From: an uncultured Verrucomicrobiae bacterium
GTDB taxonomy: Bacteria > Verrucomicrobiota > Verrucomicrobiia > Chthoniobacterales > UBA10450
Assembly (NCBI GenBank): GCA_963726745.1
Contig: CAVSDR010000003.1
Span: forward strand, 672,001-736,000
Direction: 5' to 3'
Length of the DNA stretch: 64,000 bases
Within the stretch, counting starts at the first letter, position 1; each line of letters opens with the position of its first letter. Shown one piece after another: positions 29,728-54,109 of this stretch. Under the pieces are notes generated by a model, which saw only the letters and a program-made list of their open reading frames with translations, had not been told where the DNA came from and made no database searches. Position numbers and translations under genes: made by a program.

Positions 29728-32700
29728 TTACCGCAAGTCGTAGACTTCCACCAGCGCCACCCCGGTCGAGCCGTTCTTCCCGCGCACAATCGCGGTGTAC
29801 GCGCCGGGCACGAGCGTGGCCACGATCGCTGCTTCCCGCGCGTCGGAGGGCGGCACTGTCGTGGCGATGATCTCGCTCTCCTGCGTCGCCCGCCAGTCGT
29901 CGTTCGTGATCGCGCTGCCGTTGGAGTTGAAGAGCGAAAGCTCCGGGTCCTCCAGCCGGCCCGCGACCGGCAGCGACGGCCCGACCGCCCGCACCAAAAC
30001 GCTGGCTGGTTGCGGTCCGCCGATGATGAAGCCGCCGATCATCACGTTGTCGCCCGTGAGCACGCGGCCGCGGGTGGAAATATTAGCCAGCAACTCGGGG
30101 TTGGCCGGTTCCAGGTCGTAGATCTCGATCACGGCCACGCCCGTGGCCGAGCCCTGGCCACGCACGATCGCCGTGTGCGCTCCGGGTGAGAGCGTGGCCA
30201 CGATGGCCGACTCGAGGTCGTTCGACGGCGGCACGGTCGAGGCAATGATCTCGGCCTCCTGGGTCGAGCGCCAATTGTCGTTGAAAACACGGGAGCCATC
30301 CGGCTTGAACAACTCCAGCGTGGTGTCGCCGAGGCGATCGGCCAGCGGGAGCGATGGGCCGATCGCGCGGAGGATGACCTTCTTGGGCGCGCTTCCGGTG
30401 ATGATGAAGCCACCGATCAAGACGTTGTCGCCTGTCTCCACGCGCATCCGGCTGGAGATGTTTCGCAAGGTCGGCAGAACAGGATTTGCCCCCGAGACGG
30501 TGAGGCTCGCGCCCGTGCTGCGAAGCGCGACCTGGAGATTGCCGCTGGTGCTGGCAAAGGCGCCGCTGGCCGATCCGTAACTCAGCGGGACCAGGGGCGC
30601 GTGCGGATCCGGCGTGAAGCCAGCGATCGTCCGCAAGCTCAGCTGGCCGTCGAGGGTCGCCACCCCAGCGACTTTCAATTGATCGAATTGTGGCGCGTAA
30701 GCGTTCGTCCCGCCCACTTCGAGCAGGAGCGTTCCGCCCGCCGACTGGGTGAAGTTGCCGGAGACGCTGATCGCGCCCGCGGAATGCCCCGGCGCGAGGT
30801 AGCCGCCGTCGTTCGTCAGGTCGCCGGCAATCTGTCCCTGGCCATTGAGGATGCCGCCCTGCAGCAGCACCGGACCGATCAAGCGGATGCCGCTGAGGTC
30901 GGTGCTCCCGGCAGTTTGCCGGAAAATATTTGACTCGTTAGCCGCAGCGCGTGCCGGCTGGTGGCCCGGGATGAAATTACCGGCGCCCCCAGAAATGATG
31001 TTGCCGCCTCCGCCGGAGACAATGCCCGCGCCGTCCTGGCCGATCAGGGAAGCGCCATCGTTCGAGATGATCGAAGCGCCGTCGTTGGAAATGATGGAGG
31101 CGCCGTCATTTGAGATAATGCCCGCGCCATCCTGGCCGATGAGGGAAGCGCCGTCATTCGCGAGGATCGAGGCGCCGTCATTCGAAATGATGCGCCCCCC
31201 GTTGTTCTCGAAGGTCGCCACGAGCACGTTGCGCGGCGTCTCCGGCACCGGAGTTGATGATGGACGAGCTTCGCGTTTGCCGCCGGTGCGACGTCCCATG
31301 AGGAACTGGCCCGCGTTCCGGAAAAAGGCGGCCACGCCATCGAAGAATCCATTGCGTCCGACCGCCGCTTTCGACGCGACGCCGCCGGTGTTTCGGATGC
31401 CGGTAATGCCAGCGCGCCCGATCAAGTTGGTTGCGCCCTGGTTCTCGATCGTCCCGCTGAAGGCGACGTCTTCTTCATTCACCAGGAGCATCGAACCGCT
31501 GGGCGTGATCGTCAGGTTAGGCAGCGAGATGGTGCCGCGGGAAATCGTGAGGGTGCCCGTGATGGTCAGCGCGCCGGGCCCTTCTAGCGAACCGCCATGC
31601 AAGCCCACCGCGAGCGCCGTGACCTCCGCGGAAAGGGCCACGCGGAAGTCGCCGACAATCGCGAGATCGCCTGGGCCGGGCACGCCGCTGTTTCCCTGCG
31701 CGTCGAGCCAGCGCGCCGGATCGCTCCAGGCGCCATCGGCCAACCGTTGGAAAACCTTCCCGCCAGCCGGCGCGATGCGCACATGCACCGGGATGGCGTC
31801 GCCGGTCACGCCCAGTTCATCGACGGCGCTCGCTTCGACCACATGGTCACCGGGCGCCGGTGGGGTGAAACTCCGGCTGCCGCTCGAGGCGTTGAAACTC
31901 TCGATCGTCTGGCCGTCGTAGAGCAGGCGGAGGGTTTTGATCGCGGGACCGCCGTTGGCCATGGCATTCGCCGAGACCGTGAACGCGCCCGCAGGCAGCG
32001 GCACAGGAAACTCGAAGTCGGTGCCTAAACCAGCGCCGGAAAGGCCAGGCGAATTCACGCTGACCGCCGGCGACGGACTATTAATCAGATTGAATGGCCC
32101 CACGCCGCGCGAAGGGCTGTCGATGTAGCCCGGCGCGCTCGCCACCGCGCGGAAGTAGAGTGCGCCGTTCGCCGGATACTTGTTCGAGTCGAGATAGAAA
32201 TCGCCGGGATTGCGATAGCGCGCCATCCGTCCGCCGTTGCCGTCGGCCAGGTCGGTCCAATTGCTCTCGTCGCCGGGCGAGGTCGCGCTCTGGATGCGCA
32301 TGGAGACGCCGGATGGATGCGCTTCGTCGAAGGCGCGGAAGTTGATCACCGCGCCGGGGCCGTTGCGGGTCGTCGAAAGAATCGTGCGCCCGAGATGCGG
32401 CGTGGAAGAGGTGAGATCGAAAGGGCCGACCACATTCGAGCTGCTGGCAGCATGACCGGGCGCGCTGGAAAGCGCGCGGAAGTGCACTCCCGTCACGCGC
32501 GGATAGGTCGTGGTGTTCAGCACGTAGGTCTCGTTGGTCACGTCGAAAATCATCCGGCCGAAGCTGCCGTTGTTCAGGTCGGTCCAACTCGCTTCGTCCG
32601 CTGGAGTGACCGAGCTTTGCACGCGCACCGCCAGCCGCGCGGCGGTTGAAGGCTGCGTCACCCGCATTCGCAGCACAGAATCCCGCGCGACTGGAACACC

Positions 32701-51699: not shown

Positions 51700-54109
51700 G
51701 TGACGCCCGAACGCTGGCAGCAGGTCAAGGGTCTCCTCGCGCGCGCGCTCGAGCAGCCCGATGGCACCACTCGCGCAGACTACGTGCGCGGCGCCTGCGC
51801 CGACGATACCGGCCTGCGGCGTGAAGTGGAATCGCTCCTGGCGCAGCCGGACGACGAGTTCGATGCCTGCGCGGAGCATCTCGGCTTTGCGCACGCGGAT
51901 CCGTTTGCCGCCGGGCAAAGCGGCCGCCGGCTCGGCGCCTACGAGTTAATCCGCGAGCTCGGCCGCGGCGGCATGGGCACGGTCTGGCTGGCCCGGCGCG
52001 CGGACGAGCACTTCGAAAAGCTGGTCGCGATCAAGCTGCTCAAGCGCGGCACCGATACCGATGAAGTCCTGGCCCGCTTCCATGCCGAGCGCCGCATCCT
52101 CGCGCGCCTGGACCACCCGCACATCGCCCGCCTGCTCGACGCCGGGACCACGGAGGATCGGCTGCCGTATTTCGTCATGGAATACGTCGAGGGCGCGCGC
52201 CTGACCGACTTTGCTTTTGCCGGCAACCTCTCGTTAGGCGAACGGCTGGCGCTCTTCCTCAAGATCGCGCAGGCGGTGCAATTCGCGCACCAAAACCTGG
52301 TGGTCCACCGCGACCTCAAGCCGGGCAACATCCTCGTGACCGCGCAGGGCGAGCCCAAGCTGCTCGACTTCGGCGTGGCCAAGCTGCTCGCACCCGGCGA
52401 CGACCAGTGGGAACGGACCGTTGCCGGGCAGGAGCGCTTTACCCCGGCCTATGCTTCGCCCGAACAAATCCGCGGCGAGACCGATCACCACCGTGAGCGA
52501 CGTTTACTCGTTAGGCGCGCTCCTTTACGAACTCCTCACCGGCGGGCCGCCGCACCGCTTCGCCGGCCGCAGTCCCACGACCACGCAAGTGAGCGAAATC
52601 GTCGGCGAGCGCGCGCCCCGTCGGCCCAGCCTCGCGGCCAGGGACCCCGAGATGCGCCGGCGTTTGCGCGGCGATCTCGACACCATCCTTCTGTGCGCGC
52701 TCGCGCAGGAACCGGAGCGGCGCTATCGCGGCGCGGGACAATTAGCCGACGACCTCCGCCGCTACCTGGCGCACGAACCAGTGGAGGCGCGCCCGGACAC
52801 GCTCCCTTATCGCGCGCGGAAATTCCTCCAGCGCAATCGCAGCCTCACGGCCGCGGCCGCGCTTCTCTTCCTCGCGCTCCTCGGCGGCCTGCTCGCGACC
52901 GCGCACCAGGCACGCATCGCCACGCGCGAACGCCACCGCGCCGAGCGCCGTTTCGGCGAAGTGCGACGCCTGGCAAACAGTCTTCTCTTCGACCTGCATA
53001 ATGCGATCGCCGAGATTCCCGGCGCCTTGCGCGCGCGCCAGATGCTGACCGAGCGCGCGGTCGAATATCTCGACAGCCTCGCGGCCGAGGCCGGCGACGA
53101 TCTCTCGCTCCGGAGCGAACTCGCGGCCGCTTACGACAAGATCGGCAGTCTCACTTTCAACCTGCGCGAAGCGCGCGCCGCCCACGAACGTGCGGTCCAC
53201 CTGGCCGAGGCGGTGGTCCAGGCCGCGCCGGAAAATGCCAGCTATCGCCGACAGCTTTCCGAGAGCTACGATCAGCTCAGCGATGTCTTAAAAATCGCCG
53301 GCGACTCGCAGGGCGCGATCGCGCTCGCGCGCAAGTCGCTGGCTATTTTGCCCGCCGGTCCGGCGTTTGCCCTGGCGCGTGCCGAGCGACACGCAGCGGT
53401 CGCGATTGCGCTGCTGAATGCGGGCGACTTCCGCGCCGCCCTCGAAGAAGTCGAAGCCGCGCGTGCGCTCGAAGACTCGTTAGGCGGCGAGGAACGCGAA
53501 AGCCGCCGGCGCCGGCTGGGTTTGCAATTGCTCGCTGCGGAAGCGCACTCGGAGGCGGGCGATTTCGCCGAGGCGCTCGCGCTGGCCAACGCTGCGACCG
53601 CCGCGGCGGAGGCGCTCGCACAGGAGGAACCGGGAAATAGCCGGCATCTTCGCGATCTTTGGTCGACGCGTTTCCGGCGCGGGCGAATCTACGCGGCCAT
53701 GGGCCAACCGGTGGAGGCGTTGGCGGATTTGCGCAGCGCGGTGGAATACCTCGAAGGCTTGGCCGCGGCCGATCCCAACGACATCGGGCACCGCCGCTGG
53801 CTGGGCGTGACCTATGGCGCCATCGGCCGCGCGCTCGCCGCCACCGGCGACCGTGCCGAAGCGGAGCGTTTCCTGGAAAAAGGACGCGCGATCGCGCAGC
53901 AGTTGGTGACGGACGACCCGCAGCGCGTCGAAGCGCAACTCGACCTGGTGGAGATCGAGCGCGCGCTCGGCGAATTGCCGGCGGCGACGCCGGCGCACCT
54001 CAGCCACGCCGCGCAATTGGCCGAAACGCTCCTGGCCGAGGACCCGGCAAACGTCCGCCTGCAAACCACCGTGGCCGCGCTCCGGGCGGAGTGTGCCCCA
54101 CAAAAATAG
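51700..54109 (+). CDS. Hanks-type Ser/Thr kinase 2 with TM and TPR-like region; one apparent +1 error near 52480
   Basis: GRGGMGTV, VAIK, HRDLKPGN, DFG, YASPEQ, then ITTVSDVYSLG, TM and TPR-like helices in ORF 52421..54109. Confidence 0.9.

Follow-up and report, generated by a model that had tools for sequence, protein, structure and literature searches.

Kinase-linked TIGR02999 sigma factors opposite a modular secreted-protein family in Chthoniobacterales: a candidate one-target switch

To our knowledge, few kinase-activated sigma factors have been studied so far, and a 64,000-nt stretch of DNA (the window: contig CAVSDR010000003.1 of assembly GCA_963726745.1, positions 672,001 to 736,000) from the 3.4-Mb genome of an uncultured bacterium of the order Chthoniobacterales raises the question of what such factors might control. 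Close homologues carry a Chthoniobacterales label from their sources, from which the analysis itself took the order of the host. Here four minus-strand genes for putative surface proteins (A to D) stand beside two plus-strand pairs, each of an extracytoplasmic function (ECF) sigma factor and a kinase. All eight genes are present at the coordinates claimed by an original prediction, which had the two pairs controlling the four proteins. We judge it probable, from comparison across genomes, that the locus holds a lineage-specific, portable one-target switch, in which a kinase-activated TIGR02999 sigma factor would transcribe the divergent surface-adhesin gene from a conserved motif.

Sigma factor–kinase pairs and the genes they face

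The four genes, A (29728..33981, 1417 amino acids (aa), intact), B (34100..38473, 1457 aa, intact), C (38589..42633, about 1350 aa) and D (45854..51003, about 1720 aa), had been described as paralogues on one chassis, and they are: a family-defining core, predicted as two FN3-like domains and one Ig-like domain, lies on the minus strand in A (31747..32751), B (36284-37309), C (40695-41691) and D (47868-48884), and is confined to these four places in the 3.4-Mb genome. At 1,350-1,720 aa the proteins are large, not ‘giant’ as first called. As had been read from the window, C and D each diverge from their own plus-strand pair of a TIGR02999 sigma factor and a kinase with a transmembrane (TM) helix and tetratricopeptide repeats (TPRs), namely sigma C (42771..43367) with kinase C (43364..45848), and sigma D (51091..51696) with kinase D (51700..54109). 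A gap of 137 bp separates C from sigma C.

Both sigma factors score well above the TIGR02999 cut-off of 126 bits (183 and 176 bits) and contain a Sigma70_ECF (PF07638) domain (168 and 155 bits). In both, QPTA stands at the position of the DAED motif, with predicted phosphosites at Thr63 in sigma C and Thr67 in sigma D. The kinases, at +1 and overlapping or abutting the sigma gene, are of the Hanks type, with the catalytic motifs VAIK, HRDLKPxN and DFG; each has a single hydropathy peak (the predicted TM helix) and Pfam TPR matches, the topology with a TPR ectodomain being predicted. The best PDB match of kinase C is PknS (9EED), its N-terminal extension included. PMC7826278 defines group ECF43 by a Sigma70_ECF domain, by Ser/Thr replacing DAED, and by a +1 kinase that has one TM helix and outer TPRs; the strict group is described there as proteobacterial only, later widened to more than 900 members, with a predicted promoter of GTC (–35) and CAG (–10). 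PMC13147305 gives QTTA as the consensus at the Ser/Thr position and reports that EcfK is phosphorylated directly, with the periplasmic domain of PknS modulating, while EcfP/PknT of Vibrio parahaemolyticus is summarised in PMC8999054. The ECF43-like logic proposed for this locus was upheld by QPTA, the +1 kinase, the TM helix with TPRs and the PknS match, and judged by these features the switch would work like that of ECF43 (EcfK/PknS). Because the GTC/CAG promoter of the group is not found here, we file the system as ECF43-like and not as an ECF43 member.

In common with EcfK/PknS of Xanthomonas citri and EcfP/PknT, it has a Sigma70_ECF-type sigma factor whose acidic region 2.2 motif is replaced by Thr, and a +1 kinase with an N-terminal extension, one TM helix and outer TPRs. 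Unlike them, it occurs in a Verrucomicrobiota host, its apparent target is a single divergent secreted-protein gene where theirs is a type VI secretion system or a polymyxin regulon, and several paralogous pairs are found per genome, with distinct variants of the putative promoter (five TIGR02999 pairs here and up to 14 in related genomes, a tally that includes the unpublished genomes G001, G035, G008 and G030; no locus-level claim uses unpublished genomes). Planctomycete ECF59/ECF217 also have a kinase at +1, and ECF217s1 neighbours carry dockerin and extracellular-protein domains; however, the sigma factors here pass TIGR02999 and not the planctomycete models, and ECF59s1 kinases have six TM helices. 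Our literature search, which left most subscription journals outside, found no description of the kinase/sigma module in Chthoniobacterales or Verrucomicrobia, in agreement with the original prediction, and no measured promoter for a kinase-activated sigma factor.

For linkage in other genomes we took loci from 14 of the 17 other core-positive relatives (two unpublished genomes and one weak match were omitted) and from all 29 new genomes of the host’s taxonomic family; once two near-copies, one overlap and small remnants had been removed, 65 genes of the protein family in 43 other genomes were left. A TIGR02999-like sigma gene is faced by 43 of the 65, with the kinase visible in 40 and the contig ending in 3, so that the linkage on which the original prediction had staked its case is seen outside this genome as well. 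Among the others, seven face another sigma-like gene and three the TPR-CHAT gene of that other cassette, four are second genes of a tandem, and three are cut by a contig end. The core itself was detected in 18 of 61 relatives and 45 of 251 genomes of the host’s taxonomic family (tallies that include the unpublished G001 and G035) and was absent from 300 other genomes of the phylum that were searched. In a tree of 85 sigma factors (a quick tree; the careful search is unfinished), 19/19 family-linked sigma factors fall within one 36-row clade, with a support of 99 in the Shimodaira–Hasegawa-like approximate likelihood ratio test.

The pairing is neither special to the family nor exclusive, as might have been supposed from the window. 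In the sigma clade, 17 of the 36 rows face genes without the core, and many other TIGR02999 pairs in these genomes face secreted-protein genes that end in one of two tails described below. A third pair of the host genome (contig C6:685332-698942) faces a secreted-protein gene, about 2,900 codons long and broken by a frameshift, which is followed by a dockerin-like-tailed gene; the motif is present at both. Conversely, 10 of the 65 family genes adjoin the other regulator cassette (loci L120:10390-15261, L130, L139, L163, L041, L215 and L217), which has a motif of its own, CCGGTAAT...CATCTCCA. In this cassette the gene for a sigma-like protein of 352-357 aa, whose matches to sigma-70 are weak, precedes a zinc-finger anti-sigma-like gene and a TPR-CHAT gene. 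This second cassette is absent from the host genome. A CHAT protease context is described for ECF54 in PMC8999054 (section 3.3); the sigma-like gene and TPR-CHAT gene beside 10 family genes resemble it, but the long sigma-like protein has weak family matches only and is followed by the zinc-finger anti-sigma-like gene.

The upstream motif and the sigma factors that may read it

An upstream motif had been reported as common to all four genes, and we find it at each, on the minus strand: at A (34029..34064), B (38522..38557), C (42686..42721, inside the 137-bp gap) and D (51036..51071). Its consensus is an A/T-rich run, TGAGCC, 18 bases and GCG(A/T). The short form of the motif occurs in the window at chance level (16 matches versus 12.8 expected), whereas the full form has exactly four sites in the window and none in 100 shuffles. 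Since the full pattern was written after seeing the four sites, the real evidence comes from held-out tests. In leave-one-out scoring, 31 of the 36 sigma-clade loci exceeded 10 bits on the divergent strand and 1/36 did so on the sigma strand. All 24 held-out family genes facing a TIGR02999-like sigma gene scored 13.9-43.8 bits, while eight control family genes facing the other sigma-like gene scored –7.0 to +1.6; seven of these eight have CCGGTAAT...CATC instead. In these sequences the motif thus follows the regulator and not the cargo, being replaced by another motif where the family faces the other sigma-like gene.

A matrix built without the host genome found 10 sites above 16 bits in its 3.4 Mb, against 0, 1 and 1 in shuffled megabases, none of them above 20. 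The highest score is that of D (45.3 bits), followed by the C6 target (37.7), B (36.1), A (27.2), a secreted-protein gene on contig C3 (26.1), two sites without a recognised target (23.8 and 22.4), the second C6 secreted-protein gene (20.8), C (16.9) and one further site (16.1); in all, secreted-protein genes lie downstream of 7 of the 10. The motif is not a general mark of secreted genes, because a site is present at only 5 of 33 twin-tailed and 1 of 30 dockerin-like-tailed genes. The C3 gene (C3:85254-89621) is of secreted type with a twin tail, a beta-helix match and a strong GCGT-type site, and no sigma gene adjoins it; similar genes in related genomes (L064, L078, L113) face their own sigma gene. 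A scan of positions 29000-46500 for generic sigma-70 promoters and terminators gave nothing above shuffles. No terminator was found to separate the genes C, B and A, so transcription begun at C or B may run on into A.

Letters of the site vary with the sigma factor. Over 39 sigma-site pairs, GCGA at –10 maps to one clade (16/16, support 99), whose sigma factors read VHES where the others read VHEA or VHEV. A later set gave VHES with GCGA in 8/8, VHEA with GCGT in 14/14 and VHEV with GCAT in 2/2, 6 of these 24 pairs being already in the sigma tree. At –35, judged by eye, TGAGCC goes mostly with S-[P/E]-A-T-V-K-R in region 4.2 and TGA[A/C]CA with the sigma C group. Where the site has a TGG/TGT variant, the third residue is Arg, Thr or Met, and Arg occurs there in both clades. 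The motif, TGAGCC-N18-GCG[A/T], is likely the promoter of the linked sigma factor, to go by the held-out scores and this co-variation, which also favour the shared sigma target that had been proposed. The site of B (TGAACA...GCGA) is of sigma C’s type, as in C; that of D (TGAGCC...GCGA) is of sigma D’s; and that of A (TGAGCT...GCGT) is of the type found at the unlinked C6 sigma factor. If this code holds, B and C would be targets of sigma C and D a target of sigma D, whereas A would belong to the C6 sigma factor. The idea of two cassettes controlling four genes therefore does not fit A, whose site type is that of a third, unlinked sigma factor. The closest relative of A has its own VHEA sigma gene opposite and a GCGT site.

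The motif might instead be the operator of another DNA-binding protein or a housekeeping-type signal, with sigma factor and kinase merely co-inherited. The sites do contain imperfect inverted repeats, clearest in C, and the spacing between the boxes is longer than in most ECF promoters; co-inheritance would also be able to mimic co-variation. An operator of this kind would, however, have to be strand-specific and bipartite with fixed spacing, to give way to another bipartite motif wherever the sigma factor is replaced, and to carry –35 letters that change with the helix of region 4.2, of which both sigma clades include Arg variants. We regard this alternative as very improbable.

Chassis, heads, tails and repeat array of the family proteins

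The chassis is predicted to consist of an Ig/FN3 stalk, a barrel-less autotransporter-like beta-helix, an Asp-Gly octapeptide array and a twin tail. For A, residues 411-1417 were modelled with AlphaFold2 (40 rows; mean predicted local distance difference test score (pLDDT) 74), which gave three beta-sandwich domains, a beta-helix with a low-confidence insertion and two C-terminal beta-sandwiches. The predicted stalk matches FN3/Ig chains such as SiiE and CbhA, the predicted helix resembles the passengers of autotransporters and the autochaperone of IcsA (Z 12-16, and Z 12-17 over the fold comparisons of autotransporter type), and one predicted tail domain resembles the C-terminal jelly roll of Tk-SP (Z 9.7); an ESM Atlas search with the helix region reached a best score of 0.85, which serves as a lead only. 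Like the passengers of IcsA, antigen 43, TibA, pertactin and Ssp, the proteins would have a right-handed beta-helix with an autochaperone-like end, but a twin beta-sandwich tail replaces the C-terminal barrel, and an FN3/Ig stalk, a variable head and the octapeptide insertion are added. Library scans gave no beta-barrel family match and the C-terminus is modelled as two beta-sandwiches. Type Va autotransporter membership was rejected because there is no C-terminal barrel. From fold and heads we infer a product that is a predicted surface adhesin.

The heads differ. Gene A begins with a signal-peptide-like start and a delta-60/DUF5122 propeller of seven repeats, B has a TolB-like propeller and a He_PIG Ig domain, C a TolB-like head and D a YncE-like propeller; of the head types first assigned, DUF5122/delta-60 (A) and TolB-like PD40 (B, C) stood, and the YncE-like match of D is below the family cut-off. 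Nor are heads always propellers, since LamG, DUF11, a weak C-type lectin match and GloVer repeats also occur in the family. That they are swappable is supported by the core tree of 46 family proteins, where eight head groups (one of which merges two head types via a protein carrying both) need 21 changes, with a minimum of 7; shuffled placement needed 24.8 on average, and 3 of 200 shuffles were as low as 21. The clade of A alone (support 100) holds four head types. The shuffling of heads is a matter of evolutionary time, and no sign of an in-cell head switch was seen in the sequences.

Tails behave otherwise. The twin C-terminal beta-sandwich (‘NISTR’) tail, at 29728..30471 on the minus strand in A, occurs at 33 places in the genome, and a second, VSRKxHG/dockerin-like tail at 30; in relatives the latter ends four family genes. 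Neither has a dedicated Pfam or NCBIfam model, a weak DVUA0089 match being the only one found, and both may be export or anchoring tags. Comparison of DNA shows tails homogenised within genomes: at least 85% identity was reached by 9 of 27 within-genome pairs (seven genomes) versus 1 of 408 between-genome pairs, and the tails of B, C and D are 91-96% identical where their cores are 57-63%. A twin tail is also carried by a Kelch-like repeat protein at window positions 57524-59374.

The octapeptide array lies on the minus strand in A at 30976..31191 (9 units, inserted in the predicted beta-helix), in B at ~35381-35596, in C at 39855-40118 and in D at ~47115-47258. Its units are of the LITNDGGS, LISQDGGG and IVAQGGGN types (Asp-Gly/Gly-Asn). 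It had no Pfam or NCBIfam match, no paper on it was found in our literature search, and no confident model of its fold was obtained (pLDDT 24-45 in context, 48.8 alone). A pattern scan found 81 array stretches in Verrucomicrobiota, Actinomycetota, Acidobacteriota, Proteobacteria, Chloroflexi, Planctomycetota, Armatimonadota and cyanobacterial relatives, and the loci scanned (L115-L192) place the array in secreted proteins of at least eight phyla. Carriers include RTX, RHS, two-partner-secretion and Ig-rich proteins; in RHS, two-partner-secretion and DUF11 proteins the array often sits C-terminally. Exact units are common to several phyla, those such as LITNDGGS recurring 102 times among 671. 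One cyanobacterial-relative genome has about 20 array loci, some adjoining kinase-AAA-TPR genes.

What the kinases sense bears on this array. In a self-sensing loop, the TPR ectodomain would have the family protein as its ligand, in the simplest case through the Asp-Gly octapeptides and in the manner of RRNPP-type signalling, so that the cassette would sense kin or neighbours displaying such proteins and amplify display. TPR domains do occur in both regulator types beside the family (kinase-TPR and TPR-CHAT), the array is predicted to be an unstructured insertion, and its exact units recur across phyla; within the family, a TPR gene does stand beside a secreted gene bearing such peptides. Outside it, however, a scan of 72 of 124 neighbours showed a TPR gene at only 5 of 39 array loci, and one genome accounts for three of the five; the ectodomains of kinases C and D share about 30% identity, and neither resembles family-linked ectodomains more than it does others; and nearly half of the sigma clade, as counted above, faces genes without the core. 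Self-sensing appears distinctly unlikely. Ectodomains of the sigma D type are 43-46% identical despite different heads, and a fixed pairing of head type with sensor was rejected on that ground. Predator sensing, which had been offered beside a ligand or a cell as the cue, was rejected as analogy only; nothing points to a predator or to a particular ligand.

A wider joint reading would make the system one of multi-channel cell recognition, in which fast-diverging TPR kinases detect the surface proteins of neighbours and act through private promoters and reshuffled adhesin heads, with the cross-phylum array serving secreted proteins as an undescribed universal tag for assembly or recognition, also at the cargo end of RHS and two-partner-secretion proteins. 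We consider this combination unlikely.

Frame breaks, neighbouring genes and a proposed mechanism

Several observations weigh against a one-target switch read from this motif. The ECF43 promoter GTC/CAG is not matched by TGAGCC/GCG[A/T], and 5 of the 65 family genes have no recognised regulator. As to the motif, a score above 10 bits is also reached by 8 of 49 loci outside the sigma clade and missed by 5 of 36 within it, no recognised secreted gene follows 3 of the 10 best sites in the genome, and C’s own site, at 16.9 bits, is within reach of shuffled DNA. The –10 co-variation amounts to one evolutionary event, since kin share both traits, and VHEA sigma factors are paired with GCAT or GCCT in four rows. 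Adhesion is a prediction from fold and head types. Finally, the 24-kb cluster holds five breaks of frame, where about 1.4 would be expected from 3 broken genes among 43 controls (17,918 aa), and other sequences speak against only three of the five: single low-depth contigs of a close relative against two, paralogues against one.

These frameshifts in the assembly lie in C near 41465, in D near 46530 and 50970, in kinase C near 44560, just past the TM helix, and in kinase D near 52480, within the kinase domain. For C, D and both kinases the coordinates of the original prediction held, but it had read through all five breaks without mention. They are probably assembly errors. Among sequencing runs, none of RNA was listed as holding this DNA; one DNA run, with a small share, covers two of the breaks, neither in a kinase. 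In it a close relative has one base fewer at positions 41462 and 50971, with one low-depth contig behind each; D has one base extra relative to B and C within near-identical 3′ ends. Read through with X, C and D are free of stops, and D has full-length relatives.

The breaks could also mean that the control is valid elsewhere while both cassettes here are decaying, with A and B alone still functional. All five fall in C, D and the two kinases, their rate is above that of the control set, and the C6 kinase and its target are likewise broken; on the strength of five breaks against about 1.4 expected, local decay is kept as an alternative. Yet the extra base is absent at two breaks in the relative’s contigs and stands out in D against B and C, no in-frame stops remain after read-through, the promoter-like sites are intact, and comparable breaks occur in other few-contig assemblies. 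Decay seems to us quite improbable.

Directly downstream of A lies a gene for a 1058-aa secreted-type protein (window 26393-29569) with BNR repeats, an M36-associated/MAM-like region and a dockerin-like tail; no motif site was found at it. A 1483-aa CSLREA/Ig protein with a long Thr-Pro run is encoded at 59544-63995. The cluster is flanked by an FAD-oxidoreductase/membrane gene pair and a glycogen synthase/CCA-enzyme pair (21893-25972 and 54559-57660), and the recurrence of these flanks around family cassettes in several relatives suggests insertion hotspots. A selenocysteine tRNA was called by ARAGORN at C5:34716-34811 of the genome.

The mechanism that we propose has five steps. By analogy with PknS, an envelope cue would bind the TPR region; the kinase would then phosphorylate the Thr of QPTA, restoring the charge for RNA polymerase binding, as established for EcfK and EcfP. 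The sigma factor, whose co-variation with the site is observed and whose binding is presumed, would read its lineage-specific variant of TGAGCC-N18-GCG(A/T): sigma C at B and C, sigma D at D, and the unlinked C6 factor at A. The product would be exported, and would present a variable head, presumably for binding, on a stalk of predicted Ig/FN3 and beta-helix fold. Over evolutionary time recombination, its traces visible in the sequences, would swap heads and homogenise tails, which would give each strain its own set of heads.

The regulatory cassette is well supported, and its mechanism is of a known kind; it comes with a cargo family that is modular and undescribed so far, a promoter code open to testing, a second regulator that can take its place, and a repeat without a name. 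This repeat, the octapeptide array of many phyla, merits a study of its own. The set offers dozens of presumed pairs of sigma factor and promoter from nature, for which a specificity code is predicted, and it may include orthogonal phospho-switches. With a chassis found in one taxonomic family only, module-like shuffling of heads, and one kind of cargo connected to two regulators that are unrelated, the system would offer a first handle on surface variation in an abundant, mostly uncultured bacterial group.

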